Origin: Gordius albopunctatus | Taxonomy: Eukaryota | Direction: 5' to 3' | DNA: 64,000 bases | Assembly (NCBI GenBank): GCA_964276515.1 | Contig: OZ193909.1 | Span: forward strand, 12,524,001 to 12,588,000 | Shown: positions 1,030 through 55,077 of the stretch, in pieces | How the letters are laid out: every line of letters begins with the position of its first letter | How positions within the stretch are numbered: the stretch's first letter is position 1 | Position numbers and translations under genes: made by a program | Notes under the pieces: generated by a model | The model's input: only the letters and a program-made list of their open reading frames with translations | Database searches by the model: none | What the model was told of the DNA's origin: nothing

Positions 1030-2538
1030 TATTCTTCTTTCTATGACTGTTTGTCACCTAAGCTGGTGGTCAGTCCTTTCAGCATTCGTTTCCATTTGTC
1101 TCTATATTTAATACATAGATCTTTCTTTATCTTGTTAACTTTCATATCGTGCCTTATTTTATGGATCCAGGTAAGCTTGGGTCTTCCTCTCCTTCGTTTT
1201 CCTGCGAAATTTATCTTTTAGATTTTATTTCCAACTAGCTATCGTCCCTTCTCTCGACATGGCCATACCATCTTAGTCTGTTTGTTAGGAGCTTTGCCGT
1301 AATTGATGTAATACCCAAAATTCTTATTTCTTCATTTCGTTTATGTTCCTTCTTACTCCTAACACCCATCTTACAATTCTCATCTCCATAGACGCAAGAC
1401 GCTGCTCTTCCCTTTTACGTATATCTCATTATTCCGAGCTATACAGGACTGTTTACTGTATGATGGATTTATACAATTCACCTTTTAGTCTTCTTGGGAT
1501 GTTTTTGTCACACAGAACGCCTGTTAAATCTTTCCATTTGAGCCATCCTGAATTAATCCCTGCTTGGATTTCTTTATCCATCTGACCATCCGATTGAAGT
1601 GTTGATCTTAAATATTTGAAGGAATCCACTCTTGTAAGTTGCCAATCGCCTAAAGTAAGGGATGCACATAGCTGATTTTCATCTAATTTAATCTTTCTCT
1701 GTAATCTGTTTTCTTTCGATTTACCCTGAGACCACTTTCTTCTATAGAATTTACATTTACCCATCTATTTACAGTATTAGCCAACTCTTGTTCACTTTTG
1801 GCACAGAGGATTATATTGTCCTCAAACATCATTGCCCAAGGAGCTTCCTCGCCCAAATCCTTGGTAATAATATCCATTATCATTATGAATAGGAACTAAG
1901 ACCTGAACCTTGATGGACTACAGTGTTAATGGTAAAGCCCTTTGTAGTCCCCTCCGTTGTTCTAACGTAGGTTCTATTTCCCTTGTACATATCTTTTATT
2001 GCTATGACGTATAATTCTGGCACATTGTTTTCTTTCGACATTTCCACACTAAAGTACGAGTAACTTTATCAAACGCTTTTTCTATTAGATCGATGAAACA
2101 CATGTGCAAATCCTTCTCCCTTTCTCTAAATCGTTCCAATAACCTTCTAACACCATTTAGGGCGTCTGCTGTAGACCTCTCCGGCATAAATCCGAATTGG
2201 TTATCTTGAATTTGAACTAAACTCCGAAGCCCTTTTTCGATCACTTTTTCCCACACCTTGAAAGTGTGACCCATATGCTTTATCCCTCTGTAATTGTTAC
2301 AATCCTGAATTTCTCCTTTTATATTATATATATCGGTATCATGTAACTTTCCCTCCACTCGTTACGCATTTTACCCATTTTCAAGATATTGTTGGTGCAC
2401 CAGTATTGTCTAGTCTGGTCCAAGAGCTTTTTCTGCTTTTAGTTTACCCATGGGAACTTTGATCTCCGTTCCCGTGATCCAGTTCCAGTCCGCTGTCTTT
2501 AATTCTCCTATTGTATTTTCCTGATTAATGTCTTCGAC
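1030..2538 (-). pseudogene. Degenerate RTE-clade LINE reverse transcriptase region and 3' end (family B)
   Basis: Broken ORFs with KALGPD, DCNNYRGIK, QFGFMPERST, FIDL(I)EKAFDKV, APWAMMFEDNIILC (decayed YADD), FKYL; GAA-type tail near 1030-1042; several frameshifts. Confidence 0.9.
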
Positions 2539-3824
2539 GTACTCTTGATAATCCTCCGACTTTTTTGATTTATGCCACCGTCTATATAGATTTTTCTTTA
2601 TTTCGATGAAATCTTTAACCGCTTGATCCCACCACCATAGTTCCCTATTCATAGCTTTGCCTCCTTTGGTCTGTCCTAGAACACGAATCGCTGTAATGTC
2701 CTTAGATAGCGTCTCCCAATCTTCGTCTACGTCCCTTTGCAACTTCCTTGCACCCAAGAGTGAGGAGGCTTTTTGATGGTATTCTTCGTTCGTCGACGTA
2801 TTCTTTAGCCTTTCGTATCGAATTCGAGGTTCATATACCTTTCTTCTTTCGGGAAATACTCTTCTGTCAAGATCCATAACAAGGGGACGATGTTGCCTGG
2901 CGATTTCTTTTCCCGGTATTACTTTGCAATCCTTGATACTCCATAAGTCCTTTCGCCGTATAAGCAAATAGTCGATTTGACTAAAATGCTTGCCACTTCT
3001 ATAGGTCACAATATGATCTTCGCGCTTTTGAAAATAGGTGTTAACGATCGCCATGTTATATGCTTAGGATACTTGGAGAAGTTTTTCCCCTTCTTTGTTC
3101 TTCAGACCATGCCCATAGCCTTCATGATTGCGTTCATACCCGAGGCGATCTTTCCCAATGTGAGCGTTGAAATCTGCCCCAATAATTAGCCTTTCTTCCT
3201 GTCCTATTCCTTGTATTTCCTTTTCCAATGAATCGAAGAATATGTCTTTCTCTGATTACAAACATCCAATTTGGGGGGCATACGCGCACATAACGGTTAG
3301 GAGGCCCCCTTGATCTGCAATCTTCACCCACATTAGTCTGTCGGAACAACGCTTTACTTCCACCACCTTGTCCTTGAACGATTCACTTAGAACGATACCG
3401 ACCCCGTTTCTACGATTTGATGACCCACTGTAGAAAAGCTTGTATCCTTCTCCTAATTCCCGAGCTTTCGTTCCGTTCCACCTCGTCTCTTGTGTACCTT
3501 TCTTCTTTTTAGCATCTGTGCGACTTCGATGCTCTTCCCCGTCAACGTTCCCACATTCCAGCACGTAATTCGCATTCTTTCCACAACTAGTTTCCTTAAC
3601 CGCCTTCGTTGTGAGTTGGGTAGTAACCCTAGTGTATTTTTCACATTGCACGGGCGGGGTATGCAGTGCGCGTCGTTTGTGGATGACGCCCTAGTCTTTT
3701 CTTGTAAAATCCTGTTAGAAACTATCATAGTTTTGGAGTTAATTTTTATAGCCGGTTTCCGACCTGAAGCCAACCCTCCACTTTTTGCACATGGACTTGG
3801 GACCGTCGTAGGTAGGGTTTTGCA
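2539..3824 (-). mobile_element. 5' half (UTR + AP endonuclease) of RTE LINE family A, frameshifted
   Basis: WNVGTL, QETRW, GVGIVL, AYAPQ, GADFN, SQIDYLL motifs; near-identical to 12925-14130; homology stops abruptly at 2539. Confidence 0.92.
3769..3824 (-). ncRNA. Degenerate twister ribozyme-like motif in the RTE 5' UTR
   Basis: Minus strand AA-CCCT-ACC-TAC-GACG-GTCCCAAG-TCCATGTGC-AAAA-AGTG-GAGGG-TTGGC aligns with the rice twister as I recall it (UAA-CACU-GCC-AAU-GCCG-GUCCCAAGC-CCGG-AUAAA-AGUG-GAGGG). Confidence 0.7.
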
Positions 3825-5163: not shown

Positions 5164-5289
5164 TAAACTTATAAGAATGAAAAGTAAGGCAAAATGTAGA
5201 TGGAATAAATTCTGTATATATTCTGATATTAATACAAATATTCACCTACATAAAGATTTTAGATAATTTATATATATTACGTATGGAGA

Positions 5290-5424
5290 TTGGAATGTAT
5301 GGAGAATGGAATATCAAAATCCTATGTTGAGATTTATAATGGCCTTAGTGACAACGCAGCGAGCGAAATCGCTGCTGTTGACCTGATGATAAGGTACATT
5401 AAAAATAGAAATAACGAAATATAC
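5290..5424 (+). pseudogene. hAT transposase remnant, left part (interrupted by the LTR element)
   Basis: SDNAAS motif; joins in frame to 12006 when the LTR element and one TSD are removed (...NEIY-HHRCACHIMNLVVK). Confidence 0.75.
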
Positions 5425-6132
5425 TTTTACATCCTTCACCCAAAGGGGAATATGTATTTGTTCTTTGCTGGGAGATTATTTATTTGTACGAGATTATTCA
5501 CCAAATCTATGATACTCTAATGCTAATTTATTCACTCCAAAAATGATAATACAACTCCGGAAACGGGATATAATTGAAGTATTCTGCAATAAGTGTTAAC
5601 ACCACAATAATAGCGCGGGAATATAATTTCTAGCGATTACAGGGGGGGGGGGGGGGAATTGGGTTTACAATGGAGAAATTTTCATTCTACGGGATGAAAT
5701 CCTATTTCTCTGTTTTTCTCTGTACTATCGATTTTGCTGGGACTTATATAGGTTTCTTTTCTTGGCCTGTGCCTTTATCCTTGAAACTTCTTTTCTTTTT
5801 GACCCATTTTACCGCGCCAATTTCGTGATGAATGGCCCTTCACTTCCAAGGCTTTTCCACGTCCTTTGGAATACTCAGCTGACAGTTCTAGGTTTTCCCT
5901 ACCTTTCTTATGCCAATTCAATATTTATTACCAGGTTATGTCGTACCCTTGCTTTTCCTTCTGCTACTTCTTTCAGGCCAAGTCTTAATTTATAGCTGTA
6001 TCCTTGTACTATTTAACTACCAACCCAAATTTCGGTAACCTTCCCTTTCCCTTCGTTTATTTTTCATCTTATCACGTGCTCATGCCTTATAAGGGCTGGT
6101 TCCCTTTTTAATATTTTCTCATGGATATGACA
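5425..6132 (-). repeat. 3' LTR (708 bp)
   Basis: Direct repeat of 11293-12000; starts TGTCA on the minus strand right after the PPT. Confidence 0.97.
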
Positions 6133-6327
6133 CCTCCCTTTTCTTCGGGGATCACGTCTCGGGGGGGGCCTTCTGGTTGAGTGTTCACGGTGGTTGGATA
6201 GGTGGGTGGAACAGGTGGTTGGGTCAAGTGGTTGGGATCTTCCAATTTCGGTCGTTCGTTTTCTGGTCCTTGTTTCAGGTTTCCTGTTGATATTTTGTTC
6301 CTTTCGATGGTCATCGTAGTACGTCAC
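6064..6327 (-). CDS. Putative spliced accessory ORF4 (Arg/Pro-rich, 87 aa) running into the 3' LTR
   Basis: Open frame begins right after the acceptor-like TTTTATAATAG; no in-frame ATG; no recognised homology. Confidence 0.35.
   Translation of the reverse strand: MTYYDDHRKEQNINRKPETRTRKRTTEIGRSQPLDPTTCSTHLSNHREHSTRRPPPRRDPRRKGRCHIHEKILKREPALIRHEHVIR
6133..6146 (-). other. Polypurine tract
   Basis: GAAGAAAAGGGAGG immediately before the 3' LTR. Confidence 0.9.
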
Positions 6328-6575
6328 CTATTATAAAATATAAATGCTGCCCGATCCCTAATACAGGATCAGTAGCCATATTCACCTCTACATCAACACC
6401 CTCCTACGTTATCACAACTTTTATTTCCAATCAACACACCAAATTTTCATATTGATATATGGGGAATAATTCTATAAATGACACAGCACACAGGGGATAA
6501 TTTATATCAATAACAGGTCAATCGGGTACATAAATTATATACATCATAGGGCCATTGTCCCTCAAGAGTGGCTTT

Positions 6576-6923
6576 TCACTCCTTCCCTTCTTCCAGTTTG
6601 AAACTCTTTAACCTTTCTCCAATTTCTTCCCAAACGTTTGTTGGGGGTCTAGCGTTCGTCTGGGTTTCTACATCCGTCTGGGTCCCTACACTTTTAAAGT
6701 TGTCTTTCTTCTTCGCCTTCTCCACCTTTTCCCTCGTCCATTTCTTCTTAATCCCTCTCGTGGTACACTTTCTTCCCCTGCTCCTCCAGGGACACGTCTG
6801 CCAGCGATGAGTTCCTCGTTCATCACATATATAACAAATTATTCCTTCTACCTGCACTTCCGACCCATAGTAACACTGCCACGTTCTATGGCTGTCATAC
6901 TGCCAGCACACCTTACATTGGAG
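6576..6923 (-). CDS. Post-integrase ORF3 with two CX2CX5HX4C zinc knuckles and a basic region; probably a spliced exon
   Basis: CKVCWQYDSHRTWQC and CYICDERGTHRWQTC; preceded by TATTTTATTACAG; no ATG. Confidence 0.7.
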   Translation of the reverse strand, partial: LQCKVCWQYDSHRTWQCYYGSEVQVEGIICYICDERGTHRWQTCPWRSRGRKCTTRGIKKKWTREKVEKAKKKDNFKSVGTQTDVETQTNARPPTNVWEEIGERLKSFKLEEGKE

Positions 6924-6950
6924 CTGTAATAAAATAGATTTCCTTAGTCC

Positions 6951-8177
6951 CTACTGGTCTCGTCGCCGTAACTGGTCAATATGCCTCCAAAATTCCTTAC
7001 CGTCTTCTATCGTCACTCGACACCTTACCCCTCCTTCTACGGCGATCACTAACCCCTTTACCCACTTACTCGGACCTTGATACATTTTAACCCAAATCGT
7101 ATCCCCTAATTTAAAGCGGGCTGCCCTCCCTAAATAACTCCCTCCCTCTACCCTTCTCAACTCGTCTAGCCATACCCTCCCTCGTCGTCCCAAGAATCTC
7201 GATGACGGGGACTGGCCATCTCCTCCCTTCGCGTTATTATACATTAACTTCATCTGCCACTGCTCGGATGTCCCCCTTTTCTCCTTAAGAATCCACCCTT
7301 TAACTACTCCCACCATTCTTTCCACCTGCCCGTTGGAACTGGGATGATAGGGTGGGGTGATAATATGTTCTATCCCTTGACTTCCACAAAATTCTTTAAA
7401 CTTTACGCTACTAAATGCTGGACCTCCGTCGGACACTATCAGTTTTGGTAATCCATATCGCGCCAATAGTCCTTTCAATATCCTTATTACAATCCGGGTC
7501 GAACTTCCATTAACCTTTTCGTACTCTACCCATTTAGTACCGGCGTCCACCGCTATAAAATATACCTGCCCTAGACACTCGAAAAAATCTAGATGCACCC
7601 TATCCCACGGATTTTGTGCCCTGGCCCATTGGCTACCTTTAATTTTGGGTGGCATCGCGGCTATGCTATTGCATGCCTCACATTGCCTGCAGAGATATTC
7701 GCTATCCTTTCTGATACCGGGCCACCAGATATATTCTCGCGCCCATCTCTTCATCTTTACCATACCCTGATGTCCTTTATGTAACTCATTTAACACCTCC
7801 TTCCTTAACACATCGGGGATGATTATCTGTAGACCTTTCATAATACATCCATCCACTATGCTTAATTGCCTTTTGATTTTTTGGTACTTTCTCAGGGCGA
7901 GGGGCCACTCGGCTTCTCCTCGAATACACTGGCCTAATTTCTTTAGTTCGACATCCCTCTCCGTTGCTTCCTTGACATCCATCCAGGAGATTGGTCCTCC
8001 GTCCGATATTCTTAAAATGTATGGTGCATCATTGTTATTATAGTTTTCTTCTATTGCTCCGCTGCTTCCTTCTTTATCGTCTTCCTGTTTTTGAGGGCCC
8101 ATTCGTGATAAAGTATCTGCGATATAATTATCCTGGCCTCTTCTATATTTTATTTCCACTTCAAATGCTCCTACCAT
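6951..8177 (-). CDS. RNase H C-terminal remnant + integrase of the LTR element
   Basis: IKYRRGQDNYIADTLSR; H-H-C-C finger (LHKGHQG...CEAC); DDE core (RVHLDF, VSDGG, GQVERMV). Confidence 0.95.
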   Translation of the reverse strand: MVGAFEVEIKYRRGQDNYIADTLSRMGPQKQEDDKEGSSGAIEENYNNNDAPYILRISDGGPISWMDVKEATERDVELKKLGQCIRGEAEWPLALRKYQKIKRQLSIVDGCIMKGLQIIIPDVLRKEVLNELHKGHQGMVKMKRWAREYIWWPGIRKDSEYLCRQCEACNSIAAMPPKIKGSQWARAQNPWDRVHLDFFECLGQVYFIAVDAGTKWVEYEKVNGSSTRIVIRILKGLLARYGLPKLIVSDGGPAFSSVKFKEFCGSQGIEHIITPPYHPSSNGQVERMVGVVKGWILKEKRGTSEQWQMKLMYNNAKGGDGQSPSSRFLGRRGRVWLDELRRVEGGSYLGRAARFKLGDTIWVKMYQGPSKWVKGLVIAVEGGVRCRVTIEDGKEFWRHIDQLRRRDQ

Positions 8178-8190
8178 TACGAGCCATCTC

Positions 8191-10287
8191 TTAGTAATTT
8201 ATCAATCCCAAAAAGGATTGCAGTTCTTTTTTGGAAGCTGGTGCACGAAGGTTACTTACTGCCGCGATCTTACTCTCTATGGGCCTAATGGTACCATTTT
8301 CGATAATATGCCCCAAATATTCGACTGTATTTACATCAAAAATACACTTTTCTTTGGACACTCTTAATCCATTGTCATCAATAATTTGTAAAACTTGTCG
8401 TAATTTATAATCATGTTCCGCTTGTGTTTTTCCTGCCACTAATAGATCATCTATATAATAGAAGACACCTTCTATTCCTCGAAATAATGAATTCATGGCC
8501 ATCTGAAAGATTGGAGCCGAAATACTTAATCCAAAAGGTAATCTCAAAAACTTAAATAGACCTAAATGTGTGTTTATTGCTAGGGCTTGACTCATCTCTT
8601 TTGATACCTTCAATTGTAGGTAAGCCGTTACAAAATCTAATTTTGAGAAGTGTTTACATCCATTCAACTCCACCAAAATCTCCTCTAAACGCGGCAATGG
8701 AAATTTTAGACTCTCAATACAAGGATTTAGAGTGATACGAAAGTCTGCACACAATCTCAACTTACCATTAGCCTTCCTTACCGGTACTAGGGGCGTTGCC
8801 CAATAACTAAAGGATACCGGTTTGGTTATTCCTTCTTTAACCCACTTGTTTAACTCCTCCTCTATTTCACCGCGCCATTCATAAGGTACTCTTCGAGCTG
8901 AACAAAATTTCGGGGTTACTCCCGGTTTTAATTTCATCGTGGCCTCATAATTTTTCAAACATCCCAACTCTTTATTGAAAATTCTTGAAAACTCTGCACG
9001 AATCTCCTCAAATTTCGCGCCTGTACTCTCTTGCAACCTTAACTCCATGTTTATTAAATCACTACCCGAGGTCGGCTCAGTTCTTATTTTATTCAACCAG
9101 TCCACCTCAAAGTTTTGAATCCAGTCCCATCCTAAAATATTATTAACCCTTAGGTCCGATATATATAATATTAGATTTTTAACAACTCTATTTACGGTTA
9201 TACGCACGTCGCACTGTCCTATTAATTTTATATTGTCATTATTAAATAGCCTAACTTCCAATTTTGACTCTTTAAATAATCCACCGTTACAAATTCTAAA
9301 CCAATCATCTCTATTCACTACAGTTATGGATGAACCGGTGTCAAATATAAAATTAAGTTGAATTTTGTTACAGAATATTTTTACGCGGGGAACTGGGTTA
9401 TTTTTAATTTCCAGCATATTTATGGTAGGAATTTGCATTACTTCCTTTTTTATCGATTTTTGTTTGATAAAATTCCCTACAAGATCATGATTACGCGGCA
9501 ATGTTACGTTAAACACTTCCCAATTTCTTTTAATGGGTATTAAAGTTAATTTACATTGAGGATAGATAACAGGGGTGGTTTTTGTTGTTGTAAACTCGTT
9601 CAATTTTCCATAGTCATACCAATACTCGTAAGTTAAAAATAAAAATCTTCGACACATATACTTGTAAAAATTACTCGTGTTGACCTTATCAATTTGCTCG
9701 CTACCCTTCCAAGGATTTAAATAAAGGTTCATTTTACTTTTGTTATATTTATTTATTTCCGTTATATTATTTCTTCCCTTCCCTATTTTATTTTGATACT
9801 GGGTTTTGCTTTTTGGTACTTTAAAAACGGTAGATTGCATAAATGATTCCAGATTTAAACGGTCGTAAGTATATTCGCCCAAAACACAAAAATTGGTATT
9901 TCCTAACCAATAAAATTTATTCCAGATTTCAAATCGCCAACACGCCCGTGAGTACGATTTAATTATATACGTTGGTGGAGTATTAGGAATTTCGAATGGC
10001 TTAACCACGATTTCTCGGATCTCCTTTCCAATCGACCTATTCCCAAGATTTTTTATCTTTCGACAAACCATCTCTTTATACTCACCCAAAATATATGAAA
10101 AATACCCTTTTTGAGTATCTTTATAAAATATACAATTATTTTGTATATTAGAAGTGTTTTCAGAAGAATAATATTTGTCCCGTTTAAGTGTGTTATGCCT
10201 CCCATGTATTTTCAAAGTACCAAACTGCACTATATTTATCATAATTTTAATAAAAAGTTGCAAACCCCAAAATAATTTGTTCAACAT
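8191..10287 (-). CDS. Unknown N-terminal domain + aspartic protease + reverse transcriptase
   Basis: FIFDTGSS protease motif; WATPLVPV, LRLCADFR, SKLDF, RLPFGLS, YYIDDLLV; ends at SFLGLINY-stop where RNase H should follow. Confidence 0.95.
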   Translation of the reverse strand: MLNKLFWGLQLFIKIMINIVQFGTLKIHGRHNTLKRDKYYSSENTSNIQNNCIFYKDTQKGYFSYILGEYKEMVCRKIKNLGNRSIGKEIREIVVKPFEIPNTPPTYIIKSYSRACWRFEIWNKFYWLGNTNFCVLGEYTYDRLNLESFMQSTVFKVPKSKTQYQNKIGKGRNNITEINKYNKSKMNLYLNPWKGSEQIDKVNTSNFYKYMCRRFLFLTYEYWYDYGKLNEFTTTKTTPVIYPQCKLTLIPIKRNWEVFNVTLPRNHDLVGNFIKQKSIKKEVMQIPTINMLEIKNNPVPRVKIFCNKIQLNFIFDTGSSITVVNRDDWFRICNGGLFKESKLEVRLFNNDNIKLIGQCDVRITVNRVVKNLILYISDLRVNNILGWDWIQNFEVDWLNKIRTEPTSGSDLINMELRLQESTGAKFEEIRAEFSRIFNKELGCLKNYEATMKLKPGVTPKFCSARRVPYEWRGEIEEELNKWVKEGITKPVSFSYWATPLVPVRKANGKLRLCADFRITLNPCIESLKFPLPRLEEILVELNGCKHFSKLDFVTAYLQLKVSKEMSQALAINTHLGLFKFLRLPFGLSISAPIFQMAMNSLFRGIEGVFYYIDDLLVAGKTQAEHDYKLRQVLQIIDDNGLRVSKEKCIFDVNTVEYLGHIIENGTIRPIESKIAAVSNLRAPASKKELQSFLGLINY

Positions 10288-10649
10288 GTTAAAATTTCTA
10301 TTAATCCTTTATTAATTTTTTACTATGACCCTTTTACTTTAAATTCTTCATGCTAATGATACCTTTTATTATTATTTTTTTTTTGATCAAAATCAAAGTT
10401 CAACACTAGTAGTCAAAAAATTTTATTTATACATATCAATATTAATATATTTTATGCAAATTGAACCATAAACATATTATGCACTAAAATCAATAAAATT
10501 TATTATAAAAATTGATATTTTATATTATATAACGAATTCGACATAGCAAGCGCGGGGGGGGGGGGTTACGAACATTATGGGGAAGGTGCTAACATTATTT
10601 TTTATATTATTAGTAATTGCACATTATTATTAAAATAAAATATAAGTTC

Positions 10650-10985
10650 TTAGGGCTTATATTTGGGAAATAACATTTTATTTTTGCAAAATTCAGCATA
10701 ATGCCCAATATCTCCACAATTTACACATCGGGGAGTGACATAATTATTTTTACTTTGGTTTGGGGTATGTAATGATGGATTATTTAATTGCTTATTATTA
10801 AAATAACAATTACGCTGTAAATGATTTGTGTTTCCGCACGTGAAGCACCTCACTCTCTTGGTTAATTTATTAACTAACTGTCCAATTAAAATGCCCAATA
10901 TCAAAATAACAAAGTAATCAATATATTCATATAAATCAGCAAACAAATTTCTTAAATAAAATCGATTATCGTTTTTACCAAACAT
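10650..10985 (-). CDS. ORF1: small protein with a predicted TM helix and two CCHC zinc knuckles (nucleocapsid-like)
   Basis: Hydrophobic YFVILILGILIGQLV; CFTCGNTNHLQRNC and CVNCGDIGHYAEFC (CX2CX4HX4C). Confidence 0.85.
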   Translation of the reverse strand: MFGKNDNRFYLRNLFADLYEYIDYFVILILGILIGQLVNKLTKRVRCFTCGNTNHLQRNCYFNNKQLNNPSLHTPNQSKNNYVTPRCVNCGDIGHYAEFCKNKMLFPKYKP

Positions 10986-11163
10986 GCTAAAATATATTTT
11001 TTAAAATTAATAATTAATGAAATTAATAAAATCACGAAAAATATTATATAATAAATTAACATACCTTTTTATAACGCTGGTTTCCGTGTGTGTCCATTAC
11101 GAATTTCGTCTGTTTTGATCGCGTCTGATTGCGGTTGAGTCTTACGGCTGTGTTTTGTCCTTT

Positions 11164-11284
11164 GGATTGCGGCGGTTTTGATTGTGTTGAATCTTAAGGT
11201 CGACTTTTGTACGAGTATAACCGGGATTGCGGCGGTTTTGCTTGTGTATAATCTTAAGGTCGTCTTTTGTACGAGTATAACCGG
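11164..11284. repeat. Two tandem 60-bp repeats in the LTR element leader
   Basis: GGATTGCGGCGGTTTTG...GTACGAGTATAACCG repeated at a 60-bp period. Confidence 0.95.
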
Positions 11285-11291
11285 GGCACCA
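11282..11291 (-). other. Primer binding site
   Basis: TGGTGCCCCG starting 1 nt after the 5' LTR; complementary to a tRNA ending CGGGGCACCA. Confidence 0.85.
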
Positions 11292-11292
11292 C

Positions 11293-12000
11293 TTTTACAT
11301 CCTTCACCCAAAGGGGAATATGTATTTGTTCTTTGCTGGGAGATTATTTATTTGTACGAGATTATTCACCAAATCTATGATACTCTAATGCTAATTTATT
11401 CACTCCAAAAATGATAATACAACTCCGGAAACGGGATATAATTGAAGTATTCTGCAATAAGTGTTAACACCACAATAATAGCGCGGGAATATAATTTCTA
11501 GCGATTACAGGGGGGGGGGGGGGGAATTGGGTTTACAATGGAGAAATTTTCATTCTACGGGATGAAATCCTATTTCTCTGTTTTTCTCTGTACTATCGAT
11601 TTTGCTGGGACTTATATAGGTTTCTTTTCTTGGCCTGTGCCTTTATCCTTGAAACTTCTTTTCTTTTTGACCCATTTTACCGCGCCAATTTCGTGATGAA
11701 TGGCCCTTCACTTCCAAGGCTTTTCCACGTCCTTTGGAATACTCAGCTGACAGTTCTAGGTTTTCCCTACCTTTCTTATGCCAATTCAATATTTATTACC
11801 AGGTTATGTCGTACCCTTGCTTTTCCTTCTGCTACTTCTTTCAGGCCAAGTCTTAATTTATAGCTGTATCCTTGTACTATTTAACTACCAACCCAAATTT
11901 CGGTAACCTTCCCTTTCCCTTCGTTTATTTTTCATCTTATCACGTGCTCATGCCTTATAAGGGCTGGTTCCCTTTTTAATATTTTCTCATGGATATGACA
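11293..12000 (-). repeat. 5' LTR (708 bp)
   Basis: Direct repeat of 5425-6132, followed by the PBS. Confidence 0.97.
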
Positions 12001-12005
12001 TATAC

Positions 12006-12180
12006 CACCATCGATGTGCGTGCCACATCATGAATCTTGTGGTTAAAGAGGGATTATCAACAATTGAGGGACCACTTGAAAAAATGTACCATGTGGTCCG
12101 GCTAATTCCAAAATGACAAAGTGTCATATGCCCCAACCTAACAATACGCGCTGGAATTCTACCTACATTATGTTAGCTGC
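12006..12180 (+). pseudogene. hAT transposase remnant, right part
   Basis: HHRCACHIMNLVVKEGL (CxxH motif) and TRWNSTYIML, with a stop/frameshift between them. Confidence 0.8.
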
Positions 12181-12840: not shown

Positions 12841-12925
12841 TTAATTAATTAATTAATTAGATGTTAACATTAACATTTTCTCTTTTTTTAATTAATTATT
12901 TTTAATTTTAATAAGTATTTAATTT

Positions 12926-14071
12926 ATGATAGTTTCAAACGAGATTTTACAAGAAAAGGCTAGGGCGTCCTCCACAAACGACGCGCACTGCATACCCCGC
13001 CCGTGCAATGTGAAAAATACACTAGGGTTACTGCCCAACTCACAACGAAGGCGGTTAAGGAAACTAGTTGTGGAAAGAATGCGAATTACGTGCTGGAATG
13101 TGGGAACGTTGACGGGGAAGAGCATCGAGGTCGCACAGATGTTAAAAAGAAGAAAGGTACACATCGCCTGCCTACAAGAGACGAGGTGGAACAGAACGAA
13201 AGCTCGGGAATTAGGAGAAGGATACAAGCTTTTCTACAGTGGGTCACCAAATCGTAGAAACGGGGTTGGTATCGTTCTAAGTGAATCGTTCAAGGACAAG
13301 GTGGTGGAAGTCAAACGTTGTTCCGACAGGCTAATGTGGGTGAAGATTGCAGATCAAGGGGGCCTCCTAACCGTTATGTGCGCGTATGCTCCCCAAATTG
13401 GGTGTTCGGAATCAGAGAAAGACATATTCTTCGAATCATTGGAAAAGGAAATACAAGGAATCCGACAGGAAGAAAGGCTAATTATTGGGGCCGATTTCAA
13501 CGCTCACGTAGGGAAAGATCGCCTCGGGTATGAACGCAATCATGGAGGCTATGGGCATGGTCTGAAGAACAAAGAAGGGGAAAAACTTCTCCAAGTATCC
13601 CAAGCAGATGACATGGCGATCGTTAACACCTATTTTCAAAAGCGCGAAGATCATATTGTGACCTATAGAAGTGGGAAGCATTTTAGTCAAATCGACTATT
13701 TGCTTATACGGCGAAAGGACTTATGGAGTATCAAAGATTGCAAAGTAATACCGGGAGAAGAAATCGCCAGGCAACATCGTCCCCTTGTTATGGATCTTGA
13801 CAGAAGAGTATTTCCCGAAAGAAGAAAGGTATATGAACCTCGAATTCGATACGAAAGGCTAAAGAATACGTCGACGAACGAAGAATACCATCAAAAAGCC
13901 TCCTCACTCTTGGGTGCAAGGAAGTTGCAAAGGGACGTAGACGAAGATTGGGAAACGCTATCTAAGGACATTAAGGAAACAGCGATTCGTGTTCTAGGAC
14001 AGACCAAAGGAGGCAAAGCTATGAATAGCTATGGTGGTGGGATCAATCGGTTAAAGATTGCATCGAAATAA
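12926..14071 (+). CDS. RTE apurinic-like endonuclease domain (frameshifts near 14028)
   Basis: WNVGTL, CLQETRW, GVGIVL, AYAPQ, GADFNAHVG, QIDYLL, QHRPL. Confidence 0.93.
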   Translation: MIVSNEILQEKARASSTNDAHCIPRPCNVKNTLGLLPNSQRRRLRKLVVERMRITCWNVGTLTGKSIEVAQMLKRRKVHIACLQETRWNRTKARELGEGYKLFYSGSPNRRNGVGIVLSESFKDKVVEVKRCSDRLMWVKIADQGGLLTVMCAYAPQIGCSESEKDIFFESLEKEIQGIRQEERLIIGADFNAHVGKDRLGYERNHGGYGHGLKNKEGEKLLQVSQADDMAIVNTYFQKREDHIVTYRSGKHFSQIDYLLIRRKDLWSIKDCKVIPGEEIARQHRPLVMDLDRRVFPERRKVYEPRIRYERLKNTSTNEEYHQKASSLLGARKLQRDVDEDWETLSKDIKETAIRVLGQTKGGKAMNSYGGGINRLKIASK

Positions 14072-14193
14072 AGAAAAATCTATATAGACGGTGGCATAAA
14101 TCAAAAAAGTCGGAGGATTATCAAGAGTACAGGGACGCAAAGAGGGCCGCAAAAAAGGCCGTTGCAAAAGCGAAGAATGCTGCGTACACCGAG

Positions 14194-15903
14194 ATGGCAA
14201 ACAAACTGGATCATAAAGGGGGCGATAGGCTTATGTACAAATTGGCCAAGATAAGGGAGAAGAAAAGTCGAGATGTCGGGGTTCTTAAAATAGTCAAAAG
14301 CGAGAAGGGTCAAACCTTATTCAAGCCGAAGGAAGTGATGGAAAGGTGGAAAGGATATTTTAAGAAACTTATGAATATTGCAAATGACAAGGATTCCCTT
14401 CCCGAAATTGAGCCAAATATAAGTATGGTCGAACTCTTTCAGAAGGATGAAGTTAGGACACAAATGAACAAGATGCAAAAAGGAAAAGCGAATGGCCCAG
14501 ATGGAATACCTATGGAAGCATTGCTCGGATGTCGTGAAGAAGGAGTCACCACCATGACGAACCTCCTTAACAAGATATTGGTAGAAGAGCGAATCCCTAA
14601 TCAATGGAGAGCAAGCACGATTATACCTTTATTCAAAGGGAAAGGAGACCCTCAGGACTGCGGCAATTACAGAGGTATCAAGCTAACTTGCCACTCCTTG
14701 AAGCTTTTGGAAAGGATCTTAGTAACAAGGCTGAAAAACGAGGTGGAAATATCGGCTAATCAATTCGGATTCGTGGCCGGCAAATCCACAATCGACCCAA
14801 TCTTTGCCCTAAGACAAATGATGGATAAGTATGGTGAAAAGAGGAAAGACCTACATATGGTTTTTATCGACTTGGAGAAAGCTTATGACACGGTCCCCCG
14901 CGATTTAATTTGGTGGTGCCTGAGGAAACAAAATATCCCTGACGCATATATACGGCTTATGAAAAATATCTATGAAGCCTCAAACTCTTGCGTTAGGACG
15001 ACAGTTGGAGACTCTAAACTTTTTCGGGTTAATATTGGATTACATCAAGGCTCTGCTTTAAGTCCCTTTTTATTTAATATAATTATAGACACGATAACGA
15101 GGGACTTTCTAAAGCCATCGCCATGGTGTATGCTATATGCCGATGATATAGTACTATGCGAGGAAACAAGGGAGAAGGTATTCGAAAAAGCAGAAAAGTG
15201 GTCAAAGCGCTTAGCTGGATATGGTTTAAAGGTCAACGATCGAAAAACGGTATACATGGAAATGAACGGTACAAGCACCCCATCGCTGGATGACCACCTA
15301 AAGTACCCAAAAGTAGACAGGTTTAATTACCTCGGCTCTATGCTACATCAAGAGGGAGGTTGCGCAACTGAAATCAATGCCCGGATTCAAAAAGGATGGC
15401 TTAAATGGCGAAGTATATCCGGTGTAATGTGCGACAAGAAAATGCCAATATGGTTAAAGAGCAAAGCTTACAAATCCATCGTAAGACCGGTGTTACTCTA
15501 TGGAAGTGAAACATGGGCATTAAACACCACGGAAGGAAAGCTATTACAAGCCACGGAGATGAGAATGATACGGTGGAGCTTGGGGTATACTAAGCTCGAC
15601 CATATGACGAATGACTTTCTCATGACAAAAATGGGTATTCAACCTATGGCGGACATGATTAACGAAAATCGGCTAAGGTGGTATGGGCATATACTAAGAA
15701 GGGACCCGGATGACGTAAATCGAAAAGTGCTAGACATGAAAATACCGGGGAAGAGAGGAAGAGGACGACCCCGTGTCACGTGGAAAAGGCAAGTCGATAA
15801 AGTTATGGAAACTAAAGAGATTCGTCAAGACATGGCACTAACCCGGTCAAGATGGAAGAGACTCATCAAAACAAACCCCACCAATGTGGGACCAAATAAC
15901 TGA
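14194..15903 (+). CDS. RTE reverse transcriptase domain
   Basis: GKANGPD, NYRGIKL, QFGF, FIDLEKAYD, GLHQGSALSP, LYADD, FNYLGS, RLRWYGHILRR, RGRGRP. Confidence 0.96.
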   Translation: MANKLDHKGGDRLMYKLAKIREKKSRDVGVLKIVKSEKGQTLFKPKEVMERWKGYFKKLMNIANDKDSLPEIEPNISMVELFQKDEVRTQMNKMQKGKANGPDGIPMEALLGCREEGVTTMTNLLNKILVEERIPNQWRASTIIPLFKGKGDPQDCGNYRGIKLTCHSLKLLERILVTRLKNEVEISANQFGFVAGKSTIDPIFALRQMMDKYGEKRKDLHMVFIDLEKAYDTVPRDLIWWCLRKQNIPDAYIRLMKNIYEASNSCVRTTVGDSKLFRVNIGLHQGSALSPFLFNIIIDTITRDFLKPSPWCMLYADDIVLCEETREKVFEKAEKWSKRLAGYGLKVNDRKTVYMEMNGTSTPSLDDHLKYPKVDRFNYLGSMLHQEGGCATEINARIQKGWLKWRSISGVMCDKKMPIWLKSKAYKSIVRPVLLYGSETWALNTTEGKLLQATEMRMIRWSLGYTKLDHMTNDFLMTKMGIQPMADMINENRLRWYGHILRRDPDDVNRKVLDMKIPGKRGRGRPRVTWKRQVDKVMETKEIRQDMALTRSRWKRLIKTNPTNVGPNN

Positions 15904-35100: not shown

Positions 35101-38100
35101 GAACAATCTTATGTCTTCCACCAGCCTACCAGGGAGCAAGGAGTTTGATAATCTATATATATAAAGTAAAGTTTATGTATGTGTGTATGTATGAAAGTAT
35201 GTAAGGAATAAATTCTGAAACTACCGGCCCAATTCGCTCGAAACTTTACCCGTAGGTTCCCAGGGCGGCCAGAGGCAAAATAGCTTTTTCAGAATCCTAA
35301 AATTCCTTTTAGTTTTAAAAATATCAGACATTTCCCGGCCAGTTTAATTTATAGCAGCATATACAATAATGACGTCATATATACGAGGCTGAAGTTTTCC
35401 GAATTAGATATTTAAAACTATAATAAAAATGTTACAGTATATGGTCAAAATTATTGGTGTTTAACAAACTATTTAATTTAAATAAATAATATTTAAATTA
35501 ATAGCTTTTGCAGAATCCTAAAATTCCTTTTAGTTTTAAAAAAGGGATAAATTCTGAAACTATCGGCCCAATTCGCTCGAAACTTTACCCGTAGGTTCCC
35601 AGGGCGGCCAGGGGTAAAATAGCTTTTTCAGATTCCTAAAATACCTTTTCGTTTTAAAAATATCGGACATTGTCCGGCCAGTTTCATTTATAGCAGCATA
35701 TACAATAATGACGTCATATATACGAGGTTGAAGTTTTCTCGAATTAGATATTTAAAAGTATAATAAAAATGTTACAGTATACGGTCAAAAATATTGGGGT
35801 TTAACAAACTATTTAAATTAAATAAATAATATTTCGATTATTATCACGTGGTCGATCATGGGAGCATATTTTTAATAATAATTATCCATCCTTCAATTAA
35901 TTATTTTATTATATTAAAGAAAATTGTATTTCAAATAAATCAGCTAACTAGAAAAATAAAATAATGGTATTATTGTATAATAAGTAACAGCATTGATCAG
36001 CAATTTTTTCAAAAACATTTAATTTTAGTCGGATTTGATGACTAAAACAGAATTCGCATTTGGTTTGTCTTATTATATATATACTAGTAATAGTGGGTTC
36101 ATAAAATGCATGACGTGATAAAATTCGTGCTCTAAATAAATATTATGGATATTTTATTTATTTGAATTATTATTTCATATATGACCCCATTTTAGATAAG
36201 TCTTATTAATAGATTATACTTATTTAACCACTTAAGGACTGAGCCAAAGCAACGCTTGGCCGGGCACAGATAGTGCTTTATAAAGGACAAAATAATTATT
36301 TTTTCGTTAAATATATGAGAATTTTTGAATTTCTGGAGACACTATTCCTTTATGCCTTTTTCAGGGTATGTCTTGAGTTTCCCCATATCCTTTTTAGTAT
36401 GTCTGTTCTTTTAATTTTTTTCTTGGTTTGCATTTAGCTTAGCTCGTTCACATTTATTATTACGATTTTTAATCATCCTCGCCCATTCAAATATTTTTTG
36501 ATGTACGTGGGGTAAGTTTTCCTTACTTTACCAGCGTCCAAAGTCTATGGCTGACATTGTTGGACATATGCGCTACTCTCAGTGAACGGGCTCAGGTACG
36601 ACTCGCGACGAGGAAAGAAAAGGAGGATTCGCCCGAGGAGATTCAAATGGATGGCAGTATCATAAGTGGTAGTCAGAAGTACAGCGCCCTGGCTACTTGT
36701 ATCCAGCTCGTACCACTAGCCCTCAACCGAATTTCGCTTTATTGCCTCGACCCTTACAATCAAAACATAGCACAAGCGATGCTAAAACTTATTTTCCGAT
36801 TTCATGACGAGGAAGGGGAAGGTCTCCTACCCCCGTTTGCCTCTTCATTCGATCGTATCGTTCAAACGCCCGTTCCCAAGGAAGTTATCGTGCCCTACGC
36901 TAGTTCGCACAACACTTGGAAAAACAACAACAAAAGCACGGTGCCCTGCAAAGATGCCCATAGTTACAACCCTCAAGAAACGTCCATAACACTCAACAGT
37001 TGTTTTCCCGCGCTAGAATTGACACCGGTTCAAGACGGCGTTTTTATGTCTTGCTTCGAAATTTGTCGAGTGAGCAGCCCCTTTAATTTAACATTTATTT
37101 TTATAGGGCCATAATTCTACTTTATACATCCTTTTGGGTTTGGATTAAAACATTCTTAATTGGTTTATAACATATTCTTCTATGTAAAATAATTTGTTGA
37201 ATACTAATATATAAGTTAAAAGCGTATCGTCGAGATTCGTAAAAACCGGATTTAATAACGCTGCCACATGTGATTTTTAGCAAGTAAGTGGCCATCTTTT
37301 AAGTTTTTGGTGAGGCTTCGAATGAAAGGAGATATAAGCTCCATTAAATATCGCGAAACTTTTGAATTCAATCCAAGCTTACTTTCTTTTTTGATAATGA
37401 TTTGGAAATAATTTTGAAGGTTTATTGTCAAGTTTCCTTATTTTAAATATTTGCTAGAAGCCTTGTTGTTTGTGAAGTTTTATATTAATGGAATTCTTAT
37501 TTTATTCAAATCGTTACCAATTGCTGTAAAATAATTTTGGGTATATAATTTTGAATATAAATTTTTGAATAAATTTCTTGAAAAATTATAAAGCACTAAT
37601 TAATGATTAAAGTTGTTTATTTCCCATCTTTTATATATGCGTACCTATATTTAATAACTTTTTTAGTTGGTTGAAAGCCTGGCAACAGCCAAAGATCGCG
37701 ATATGGAAGTTAGTTTTGTGGTGGGCCGTGCACAGGCGAGTCTGATAAAAACAATGCTCCGTTTTGCGGGGTTTATGTGGCGTAATCCTGAATCCATTAA
37801 AAACCTTTCAAAAAGAAGTGAATCGGGGATACTTTACTTCGATTACACCTCAACCTTAATTCAGTCCCCTAACTCGCTTAACGTGAGTCATTCTTCACCT
37901 TTCCTTAATCATTTTTAAAAAATTGAAATGGATTCTTATTTTAGTGTCGATGGGTTTTGCCGGTTTTGGAAAATTTTGGTTCGAAATGTGCCCGTTTATT
38001 GGGCGCCACCTACGTATCCTGTAACGAAAAAGCCAAACTCGATCTATGCATGCCTATTATTAAAGTATCACGCGCTTTAACACTGGGCAATTACTAAACA

Positions 38101-42127: not shown

Positions 42128-43903
42128 TAGGGATGGCACAATGGGAATTTTCGCGGGGAAAATTCCCCTGAAAAATATATTTTTTTAATTAAATATGTAT
42201 GATATAATTTAAGTTATATATTATTTTAATTTACTTTAATCTCAAATTTACCTCGTGGGAACCAATATTTTAAATATTTCCTAATTTATAATTTGTGAAA
42301 ATTTTCTTAAATACTATTAACATCTAGTTGTTAACTTAAAAGATTTTGCAATCTACACTAAATTTAATTATCTCAATAATCAGGTAAAACAATATACCCT
42401 TATAGTTACATTAACAATTAGTTCTCTAGTGTAAAATTCTTTCCATATAAGGTAAATTTACACATGCTTGTAAATTTAATTCAATGTTTAGCAAAATCAT
42501 TTAAATTTTATATTGCCATTTTACTCTAAATCTTAAAATATTATATACCAACTTAATAGTAAGTATAAGTAATATTTAAAAAATATATCAACTTGTTATT
42601 TAACATTAGAGAATTTGGAATCTACACTGAAATTAATTATTACAATAATCCTAGATAAGCTTTTAAGTTATATTAACAGGTAAATTTACATATGTTTGAA
42701 TATTTAAAATATTTAGCAAAATCTATTATATTTTTATTGCCATTAACTGTTAAAATATTTTTACCAACTTCAAATCAAGTAATCTTAAATAGATATTTAT
42801 TTTATGCTAGTATTTAATTTTTTGATATAGAAGTATTTGTTATATCTAACTAAATTAAGATTTCTACATTTTATTTAAACTGAATTTACACACAATTCTA
42901 GTAAAAATAACCTGTAATCCTTTGAAAACAATAAATGTAAAAATTTAATATTATTAAACTTATTTTTTTGACTAATAGTTAGTTTTTTTTACTAATAGAT
43001 GCCAAGAAAAACATCTGACATTTGGAAACATTTATCTTCAAATAAGAAAGGTTGTATTGCTGTTTGCAATTATTGCAATTTAAAATATACATTTCCAAAC
43101 TCAACCAAAATGACAAATCATATAGCTAAGTGCCCAGATTTTATAAAGGAAAAGAATTGTTAAGAAGTTTTCTTAATGCCCCCCTCTCCCCAATCATCAA
43201 TTTGTGAGGTAATGCTTGAAAAATGCCCTATACAACAAACATCTGCTTCATGTGACCCAAAACCATCAACATCCAATATTATTAGTTACTTTGATAGCAT
43301 GACCCAAACTCAGCAAGAGAAATTAGATGAAAAATTAGCATTGGCTATTTACATGTCTAACTGTCCCTTCAATATTATCGAGAATCCATTTTGGAAGGAA
43401 TTTTTCAAACTTATAAAACCTTCATACAAACCCCCTTCCAGAAAGGCCATAGGTGGTCCATTGCTAGATAAACAATTTGACAAGATAACGATGATTATAA
43501 ATGAAAAAATTAACTCTGCCTCAAATTTTACATTAGTCAGTGATGGGTGGACGAACATAAGAGGAGAATCAATCATTAACTTCAATTTTTTTAAGTCTAT
43601 TGATACAGGATCAAATGCTCACACTGGAGAATACATATCTGAGGAATTTCTAAAAGTGACGCAAGAAATTGGATCACAAAAGTTTATAGCAATTGTGACT
43701 GACAATGCAAAAAATATGATTTATGATTTTCTTGTATTTGCTTCTTTATATTGTCTGACTAATAAATTTTATTAATCTTAATCATACTCATGAACATTTT
43801 TTTATATTAATTTACCTGTCTTGCTCGTTATTTCCCCTTAATTTCTTGTTTTTTCCCGTCAATTTTCCCTTAATCGAATTTCCCGGGAAAATATCCATCC
43901 CTA
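42128..43903 (+). mobile_element. Internally deleted hAT transposon
   Basis: TIR TAGGGATGG/CCATCCCTA; perfect 8-bp TSD GAAGGAAC; GGGAAAA subterminal repeats. Confidence 0.95.
42999..43775 (+). pseudogene. Truncated hAT transposase (BED zinc finger + start of catalytic core)
   Basis: IWKH...CNYC...NHIAKC; YKPPSRK; LVSDGWTN; IVTDNAKNM; disrupted near 43160; C-terminal half absent. Confidence 0.9.
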
Positions 43904-47303: not shown

Positions 47304-47532
47304 GATGTTGAATCGATTTAGAAGAAGACACGCAATTCGATATGATGGGGGATGCAAGCTAAATATACGACATAAATATAAATCATAGAGATCATCTTTT
47401 TTCCCAAAATTTTATAATACAAGATGTATTTAAGAAAGTTCCAACAATAGGGCTAATTTTCCTTCGAATTACGATTCTTTTTTACGGCGTTAAAAGCAAA
47501 TCCCAAATCAAATCTGCACTTTCTATCATAAT

Positions 47533-54216: not shown

Positions 54217-55077
54217 TAGTGATGATCAAAACCTAGGTTTTGATCAGGCAACCTGAGGGTTCAGGTTCGGGTGTTCAAAAACCTTTTACCAGGTTTTTGA
54301 ACACCTGAACCTTAACCTGAGGTTGATCCCGAAAATCAACCTGAAAAACCTTCAGGTCAATTTTATCCCCAACCTGAAACCCAGGTTGACCTCAGGTTAA
54401 CCTGATAAAAATCACTTGTTTTATGCGATAAATTTAAGAATAAATTTATATTTTACTTTAACTATTTTCCTTTTTCAAGATGCGTCAAACTTTTTAAATA
54501 TTTACAATTTTAAATGAAGAAAAAATAGTTTTTGGTTATTATTATAAAAAAAAATAAGATTTTTTTATATAAAAATTTAATTAATTGTTAAACATGTATA
54601 TTACTCGATAACGCCATCTATATGTTTATAAATTTTGATAAACATATCCCCACACTTTATTTATCAAAATTTATAAACATATAGATGGCGTTATCGAGTA
54701 ATATACATGTTTAACAATTAATTAAATTTTTATATAAAAAAATCTTATTTTTTTTTATAATAATAACCAAAAACTATTTTTTCTTCATTTAAAATTGTAA
54801 ATATTTAAAAAGTTTGACGCATCTTGAAAAAGGAAAATAGTTAAAGTAAAATATAAATTTATTCTTAAATTTATCGCATAAAACAAGAGATTTTCATCAG
54901 GTTAACCTGAGGTCAACCTGGGTTTCAGGTTGGGGATAAAATTGACCTGAAGGTTTTTCAGGTTGATTTTCTGGATCAACCTCAGGTTAAGGTTCAGGTG
55001 TTCATCGAACACCCGAACCTAAAACCGACCTGAGGTTGGACCTCGGGAAAACCTGACCTAGGTTTTGATCATCACTA
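54217..55077. mobile_element. Foldback hAT-type MITE (near-perfect palindrome)
   Basis: TIR TAGTGATGATCAAAACCTAGG; perfect 8-bp TSD GTGTAGAT; ~345-bp inner arms around a 17-nt loop (54643-54659). Confidence 0.95.

Follow-up and report, generated by a model that had tools for sequence, protein, structure and literature searches.

A horsehair-worm Ty3/gypsy family without a detectable capsid gene

A capsid is regarded as essential for LTR retrotransposons. The closest described departures are plant Copia elements: Tos17 of rice is described as active, gag-less and pol-keeping, with an inferred Gag donor (PMC3977881), and BARE2 of barley as keeping pol and making no Gag, its RNA being packaged in BARE1 particles (PMC3735527). 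For the gypsy element Cer1 of Caenorhabditis elegans, a capsid that is invisible by sequence has been described, together with CERV, a known case of spliced accessory proteins in such an element (PMC10309623). Small accessory ORFs occur in the MDG1 group (sORF2; bioRxiv 10.1101/2025.03.14.642691) and, as described, in rotifer gypsy elements (ORF3 types; PMC5408684), a transmembrane (TM) helix being present in some.

Here we describe a Ty3/gypsy element of a horsehair worm, occupying positions 5425–12000 on the minus strand of a 64-kb window (the whole stretch of DNA analysed), that represents a family with no capsid gene detectable by sequence. Like Tos17 and BARE2, it is mobile, pol-keeping and gag-less. 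Tos17 differs, as described, in having lost its nucleocapsid (NC) as well and BARE2 in that the loss is limited to the gag start codon; both are plant Copia elements, and the descriptions in those two sources include neither an orphan domain on the protease (PR) nor extra zinc-knuckle ORFs. Cer1 differs in its long gag with the capsid fold in the normal position, and CERV is described as large and shown to export RNA. The MDG1-group and rotifer elements keep gag; the apparent TM stretch of the present element, linked to knuckles, probably belongs to an intron. A search of the open-access literature gave no match to this combination of features.

The explanation we favour, on a balance close to even, is a gag-less, pol-keeping Mag-type gypsy family that uses the capsid of another gypsy element and makes predicted spliced RNAs for Pol and NC-like proteins. 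An animal gypsy family mobile without a capsid in cis, with subfamilies up to about 20% apart, would provide a test of the entry of Pol and RNA into a borrowed particle without Gag fusion; if no helper were needed, it would test whether an LTR element can be reverse-transcribed in the absence of a capsid. The leader-exon design, as predicted, would join Cer1 as a case of retrovirus-like complex splicing.

A young insertion with Mag-type relatives

The insertion is very young. Its 5′ LTR (11293–12000) and 3′ LTR (5425–6132), each 708 bp, match at 708 of 708 positions, copies of the target-site duplication (TSD) TATAC lie at 5420–5424 and 12001–12005, and the empty-site joint is present in two public runs, X1 and X2, with 6581 bases skipped (6576 + 5); a third run, X3 (share 0.07), yielded short pieces alone and carries no weight as to the host. 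The 5′ LTR has a TATA-like box at 11618 and AATAAA at 11400 and 11352; its ends read TG...AA, or TG...AG if the TSD is 4 bp, and not TG...CA. A polypurine tract (PPT; 6133–6145) abuts the 3′ LTR, and a primer-binding site (PBS; 11282–11291) of the tRNA-Met type, with a 10-nt match, agrees with the published tRNA-Met PBS over the first 10 nt as tabulated in PMC1084362. The structural features of Ty3/gypsy elements (Metaviridae)—LTRs, TSD, PBS and PPT—are thus all present, as the initial annotation had it, including the LTRs that it called identical-looking. Because the LTRs are identical, the empty site exists and no capsid is detected, we infer recent mobility without a capsid of the element's own.

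Pfam places PR and reverse transcriptase (RT) in a 705-aa frame and integrase (IN) in a 415-aa frame. PR (DTG) and RT (YIDD; 8192–9390) have intact catalytic motifs, and the last RNase H residues and integrase (6951–8191) follow with HHCC and D-D-E intact and no chromodomain match, so that PR, RT and IN stand in the order of a Ty3/gypsy pol (PR-RT-RNaseH-IN), with RNase H deleted here. Judged by comparison with relatives, about 150 aa comprising the end of the RT thumb and RNase H are missing at a frameshifting deletion junction (8191/8192), which accounts for the split between the PR-RT and integrase frames in the analysed copy. Three X2 contigs depart from the window exactly at this junction, and other copies continue past it. 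The separate integrase ORF of the initial annotation is a product of this deletion, and the analysed copy is a dead end unless helped, because neither RNase H nor a fused integrase is possible.

In a quick tree, the RT groups with a K02A2.6-like set (SH-aLRT 98), the polyproteins of which we take to be of the Mag type. This placement is qualified by a long branch and by a tree that includes no named Mag element as a reference. The nearest relative, P0001, an unnamed protein of the horsehair worm Gordionus sp., is 54% identical in RT over 263 aa and 42% in IN, and is the sister of the element in that tree (support 100; RT branch length 0.67). It differs in keeping RNase H, and its gene model opens with 140 unrelated residues, without PR and with no capsid match. 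Most full-length matches are 29–36% identical over the integrase. With the Mag-type, K02A2.6-like elements the locus shares the PR-RT-RNaseH-IN order and two CCHC knuckles. These relatives have a single gag-pol frame of 1300–1400 aa that starts with the capsid and in which about 64 aa separate the NC from PR; the element, in contrast, has no capsid, an NC isolated by a stop and a spacer, an orphan domain before PR, extra ORFs after IN and LTR ends other than TG...CA. Thus, one trait described for the Mag clade, two CCHC arrays in the NC (PMC2577118), is present and another, a single unbroken gag-pol frame (PMC5408684), is absent.

The capsid search and other copies of the family

A capsid profile built from 43 full-length relatives scored most other fetched polyproteins far above threshold. 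Eight metagenome loci are distant (31–52%), and the two examined, L001 and L002, which lie outside the profile, have ordinary capsids that it recognized at 4e-64 and 1e-35. In the six frames of the element and across the whole window, the same profile found no capsid (best E about 0.5–1); this six-frame search led us to reject a remnant of a capsid in another frame or within the LTR. There is also no room for a capsid ahead of the knuckles, because only 445 nt separate the LTR from the first knuckle, compared with a median gag of 223 aa in relatives (minimum 136, n=57), whereas the NC and the protease Asp are 1343 nt apart, a distance that has a median of 64 aa in relatives (n=48). An autonomous Ty3/gypsy element would have a capsid-bearing gag before the NC; none is detectable here.

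The missing capsid, which the initial annotation had already remarked on, is not unique to the analysed copy. Against a normal gag deleted here alone, an X1 contig of 290 bases, its depth several times that of the unique joints, runs across the capsid-less stretch and the two knuckles, and the orphan domain is common to copies 80–88% alike in the X1 and X2 contigs. Together, these contigs, the depths of which are rough hints and not copy numbers, cover 30 of 30 bins of 9380–11300, and among the 12 contig loose ends listed out of 73, none lies in 10600–11300.

The same data bear on an explanation that we consider unlikely, although it carries some weight: a subfamily that arose by deletion from an ordinary Mag-type family with capsid-bearing masters, its small ORFs being functionless leftovers (an NC remnant, an integrase tail and a duplicated knuckle). 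One large deletion is already present here, and several further joints bypass portions of the element. Over the NC exon there is one X1 contig, at depth 676, and over the orphan domain contigs reach 1132–1286, and therefore some copies may have a different 5′ end, perhaps with a capsid; the loose ends listed cluster at 10413–10594, in the spacer. Such a history would nevertheless fail to account for the 1.3 kb of novel sequence that separates NC from PR, or for its open frame.

If, as we prefer, a capsid is borrowed, the RNA of the element would be packed into the particle of another gypsy element, the knuckle proteins would bind that RNA and the non-CA LTR end would require the integrase encoded by the element itself. 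Borrowing in trans would be a plainer alternative, and one with precedent, to the initial suggestion that the lineage packages its RNA differently. Against this reading, no helper element was found within the window, which has no detectable capsid.

The orphan domain ahead of the protease

Fused in frame to PR is an orphan domain of about 290 aa (9391–10287), with a candidate in-frame acceptor at 10225. Its frame is open for 299 codons, as was none of 5000 shuffles (expected about 1e-12). The 29 substitutions listed include no stops, and 8 are silent and 21 replacing, as without selection (p 0.17–0.47); GC at the three codon positions (0.31/0.29/0.31) has no pattern. The frame is thus kept open, with no evident amino-acid constraint in the substitutions listed. 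Low-depth diverged contigs have frameshifting indels inside it. A 299-codon frame ahead of PR exceeds what a simple parasite would need, which counts against a borrowed capsid.

No homologue was found among 691 candidates of 383–1222 aa or in viral or metagenome contigs, and searches gave no match in Pfam and best E values of 0.064 in PHROGs and 0.12 among PDB sequences. A search of 1.84 billion representatives gave one match, P0121 (E 9e-9), which was rejected because its score was summed over a 65-aa tandem repeat.

A size of 250–290 aa would fit an extremely diverged capsid moved behind the knuckles, for which Cer1, as described, offers a precedent (PMC10309623), and a single-sequence AlphaFold model (pLDDT 33) is uninformative and too poor for a fold search, which leaves room for a capsid fold. 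We consider this reading very unlikely. The order is wrong, the domain lying behind the NC; A, E, L and Q make up 17% of it compared with 32% in capsids, with Ala tenfold below expectation and helix formers half as frequent as in capsids. When the domain was aligned with the capsid alignment in hhalign, the probability (0.15) was in the range of five shuffles (0.10–0.76), whereas five distant gags gave 79–96 and even a Ty3-G-type gag was recognized, which speaks against the possibility, raised at the outset, that the domain ahead of PR folds as a capsid.

Alternatively, a gypsy lineage, probably of horsehair worms, might have dropped the capsid altogether and replicate alone, the protease-fused domain and free, spliced knuckle proteins replacing it with a new shell or with a capsid-free RNA–protein granule for reverse transcription. 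The long-open, stop-free frame shared by diverged copies stands where a structural protein would be, and the long RT branch has P0001 as its sole close relative, the model of which also lacks a capsid match. We nonetheless hold this to be improbable: the silent and replacing counts, the flat codon-position GC and the frameshifted copies argue against a constrained protein, P0001 is weak evidence because its gene model is without PR too, and the open-access literature yielded no capsid-replacing element of this kind. With a borrowed capsid, our preferred reading, the domain may be a rapidly evolving tag by which Pol enters the particle, or simply an open leader.

Predicted splicing, knuckle ORFs and a probable second tRNA contact

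All of the ORFs initially listed are present in the sequence, and the predicted splice sites suggest leader-exon splicing. A predicted 11-codon leader exon (11065–11097) ends in a strong phase-0 donor at 11065 (AAG/GTATGT), near a T-content change point at 11063, and four acceptors in frame and in the same phase follow at 10878, 10225, 6924 and 6328. Base composition switches at three of these five predicted sites: the donor and two acceptors have change points at distances of 2, 5 and 11 nt, respectively, for which the statistics are 60, 19 and 38 compared with 2.7–8.5 in pol; in this T-content scan, the acceptors at 10225 and 6924 had no switch. GT–AG sites can arise by chance, the background inside the element being 11 donor-like sites and 14 T-rich acceptors. 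The early idea of alternative splicing thus gains sequence support, with the sites themselves being predictions; phase-matched acceptors with composition switches would be unexpected in the leftovers of a deletion. With splicing as we propose, the leader exon would be joined to the NC exon, to the 3′ knuckle ORF and to orphan-PR-RT-RNaseH-IN, which would form a single frame in copies that are complete.

Between donor and first acceptor lies a U-rich, intron-like block (10878–11064; the first 165 nt are 52% T) in the place of the relatives' capsid. The TM segment initially assigned to the 5′ small ORF (hydropathy 1.84 over 19 aa) is doubtful because its codons fall in this block, which runs up to the in-frame acceptor; it is probably the U-rich tail of the predicted intron. 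The three substitutions listed in it all change the amino acid, and a 1-nt gap occurs there in one X2 contig.

The free-standing NC-like exon (10650–10877; genomic ORF from an ATG at 10985) encodes two CX2CX4HX4C knuckles, an initial call that Pfam confirms (zf-CCHC, 1.2e-6) and the relatives' NC profile matches (2e-10). It ends in a stop 360 nt ahead of the pol frame and is thus cut off from pol by an AT-rich, non-coding spacer (10288–10649) that tolerates indels, holding 6 of the 12 listed within 362 of 1921 bases (p=0.015). The 3′ knuckle ORF (6576–6923), in the integrase frame behind one TAG, encodes two knuckle-like motifs (CX2CX5HX4C) and has a Lys-rich tail; it matches the NC profile weakly (E 0.0016), and its single-sequence AlphaFold model (pLDDT 42) is too poor for a fold search. 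We set aside, without rejecting it, read-through of the integrase stop into this ORF (same frame, UAG-G), there being no hairpin close 3′ of the stop. Four of five substitutions listed in the 5′ small ORF replace residues, as leftovers of a deletion would allow, but both knuckle ORFs keep all eight Cys/His ligands, contrary to that reading.

The Arg-rich ORF (6064–6327) exists as initially listed and is weak: its 87 codons have an open-frame chance of about 0.03, a Pro-rich frame overlaps it (6108–6323) and a one-base insertion at 6160 shifts its frame in some copies. Neither it nor the 3′ knuckle ORF has a Pfam match. A profile of integrase C-termini has its best, non-significant match within this ORF, in line with a deletion-derived subfamily, and the ORF is possibly a vestigial integrase tail.

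Ahead of the leader exon, two 60-nt repeats (11164–11283) each contain a segment that could pair with tRNA-Met by complementarity to its anticodon arm and variable loop. A two-part tRNA pattern search and an Rfam search gave no match. A 16-mer from the PBS-proximal repeat has five exact matches, one of them at the anticodon of a tRNA-Met gene, and the repeats are likely to be a second primer contact for this tRNA.

Boundaries, insertion and pol

The element, a young Ty3/gypsy LTR retrotransposon, occupies 12000 to 5425 of the minus strand, and its annotated ends held up: the LTRs (11293–12000 and 5425–6132) do not differ at any of their 708 positions and TATAC is present on either side as a target-site duplication (TSD). 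One contig each in X1 and X2, two public sequencing runs from one study that is possibly also the source of the window and hence not independent, joins the flanks and skips 6,581 bases (the element plus one TSD copy), indicating an empty insertion site. LTR termini read TG...AA with a 5-bp TSD or TG...AG with a 4-bp TSD at the same skip length, the former being the better fit to the terminal inverted repeat (7/10 by eye); the 3′ end is AA (or AG), not the usual CA, in both LTRs (5425–5428 and 11293–11296). The element splits a transposase-like remnant (5263–5424 and 12006–12110) that continues in one frame on both sides and that we take, from a motif, to be of hAT type; its left piece (5263–5424) has no Pfam match.

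A 705-aa frame carries protease (PR; DTG) and reverse transcriptase (RT; YIDD), and a 415-aa frame carries integrase with HHCC and D-D-E. P0001, an unnamed protein of the horsehair worm Gordionus sp., leads the 155 integrase hits (42% identity in integrase, 54% in RT), the remainder, where named, being mostly K02A2.6-like (Mag-type) gag-pol polyproteins. In a quick RT phylogeny with 85 rows, the element and P0001 form a pair (support 100; branch 0.67) next to the K02A2.6-like set, which makes a horsehair worm the likely host. The P0001 gene model lacks capsid and protease, and its first 140 residues are unrelated. Comparative work on nematomorph genomes notes, in its accessible part, just the dominance of Gypsy among their retroelements (bioRxiv 2024.06.11.598342).

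RT and integrase had been described as separate ORFs of the element. Relatives extend a median of 152 aa past the RT break to the RNase H end (21 of 128 proteins, those matching both motifs), and three X2 contigs diverge from the window at 8191 and 8192 with loose letters encoding the RT continuation and RNase H end. These comparisons identify the split as a frameshifting deletion in this copy rather than a family design.

Capsid, nucleocapsid and orphan domain

That no capsid gag is recognizable was confirmed by profile. Gag regions were obtained from 48 full-length members of a set of 128 fetched proteins, and a capsid-only profile from 43; the latter found no match in the six frames of the element or in the entire window, with stops read as X; a full gag profile matched, weakly, the two zinc-knuckle ORFs only. 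The LTR lies 445 nt from the first knuckle, where the gag of 57 relatives occupies at least 136 aa, leaving no space for a capsid. Similarity to the relatives' nucleocapsid (NC) profile (2e-10) marks the 5′ small ORF as the ancestral nucleocapsid, now detached from the protease Asp by 1,343 nt versus about 190 in relatives. The element has Ty3/gypsy identity but neither the capsid nor the single frame of a standard Mag member.

A displaced, unrecognizable capsid, as in the Caenorhabditis elegans element Cer1 (PMC10309623, accessible part), seems improbable: against the capsids, hhalign gave the orphan domain (9391–10287; about 290 aa, fused in frame to the protease) a probability of 0.15, in the range of shuffled sequence, versus 79–96 for five distant gags. 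Somewhat better, though still unlikely, is an autonomous element with this domain as a new packaging module. The 299 codons ahead of PR are open within an AT-rich stretch, as in 0 of 5,000 shuffles, so the frame has been kept, and contigs 80–88% alike cover the domain (eight records: 1–3, 8–10, 12 and 13), so it predates this subfamily. The case for a firm protein function is weakened by neutral-like substitutions and, in low-depth diverged contigs, frameshifting indels. Among 29 listed substitutions (26 among the rows shown of one contig listing, which has 116 further rows for the whole stretch, and 3 from another), 8 are silent, 21 replacing and none a stop, a ratio that does not depart from neutral (p 0.17–0.47); the silent share does not differ from that of PR, RT and integrase (5/11; p 0.45). 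The domain has few helix formers, structure prediction gave no usable fold, and no homologue appeared among candidate proteins, viral or metagenome contigs, Pfam, PHROGs or PDB sequences; one large-set hit was rejected as a tandem repeat.

There is perhaps one chance in four that the family is an ordinary Mag-type one and that what is visible here is a deleted subfamily. The layout elsewhere is only partly visible. X1 and X2 contigs cover 30 of 30 bins of 9380–11300, and one 290-base X1 contig of depth 676 (unique joints, about 135–220; depths are rough hints) reaches across the region lacking a capsid and the two knuckles, with no loose end in 10600–11300 among the 12 listed of 73. However, orphan-domain contigs are deeper (1,132–1,286) and most of those 12 ends fall in the spacer 10413–10594, which leaves part of the family without a visible 5′ end. 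The layout thus withstands only partly the refuting condition set at the outset, that other copies keep a capsid-containing gag. We consider it the likeliest reading, at about even odds, that the family would make its own pol and free NC-like proteins and borrow a capsid. This resembles two gag-less plant Copia elements: BARE2, which has pol and borrows its capsid (PMC3735527), and Tos17, in which borrowing was inferred (PMC3977881), each according to the accessible text.

Leader, predicted splicing and accessory frames

The annotated primer-binding site is of tRNA-Met type, matching over 10 nt the one printed in the part of PMC1084362 available. Two 60-nt leader repeats follow (site and repeats, 11164–11291); one of five exact matches of a 16-mer from the first repeat in viral contigs lies at the anticodon of a tRNA-Met gene. 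This complementarity to the anticodon arm suggests a possible second, or multi-part, primer contact.

Alternative splicing, proposed initially, gains partial support. A predicted donor (AAG|GTATGT, 11065) closes the 11-codon leader frame in phase 0, and predicted acceptors at 10878, 10225, 6924 and 6328 open the NC exon, pol frame, 3′ knuckle ORF and Arg-rich ORF in the same phase. The top-scoring T-content change points, at 11063, 10883 and 6317, lie 2, 5 and 11 nt from three predicted sites, with statistics of 60, 19 and 38 versus 2.7–8.5 in pol windows (reached by 0, 1 and 0 of 300 shuffles), windows and thresholds having been picked after the sites were seen; the T-content scan found no switch at 10225 or 6924. 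The likeliest mode of the element, at about even odds, is that of a gag-less parasitic retrotransposon with such predicted complex splicing.

The transmembrane (TM) helix annotated in the 5′ knuckle ORF is doubtful. Its codons sit within the U-rich block 5′ of acceptor 10878, and acceptor 10987, ahead of the ORF's own ATG, would run into a stop after three codons in the leader frame; the helix is probably an intron tail translated in silico. With this and the RNase H deletion as its two corrections, the initial annotation is largely right. The least secure component of the layout is the Arg-rich ORF: a Pro-rich frame with a composition like that of relatives' integrase tails overlaps it, and some copies have one extra base at 6160. 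The 3′ knuckle ORF lies in the integrase frame, beyond a single TAG (6951–6953; next base G), a candidate read-through site. Gypsy accessory ORFs are already known, in the accessible parts of the sources, from CERV of Cer1 (PMC10309623), rotifer ORF3s (PMC5408684) and sORF2 (bioRxiv 2025.03.14.642691).

Other features of the window

In a plus-strand non-LTR element (12923–15903), presumably of RTE type, a Pfam search found two overlapping frames with endonuclease and RT; a repeat search found an inverted partial copy of this element, 97% alike, on the opposite side of the gypsy element (2410–3730, minus strand). Pfam further identified a plus-strand DUF659 transposase fragment (43164–43775) and, in a single long minus-strand host ORF (45423–47411), NTP_transf_7 (E = 2e-112), the product being, we assume, a TENT5/FAM46-like nucleotidyltransferase. 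A plus-strand 213-codon open frame (36473–37114) has no Pfam match. The repeat search also returned a near-perfect palindrome (54298–55004; 345-nt arms, 99% complementary, 17-nt loop), either a genuine foldback or an assembly artefact.
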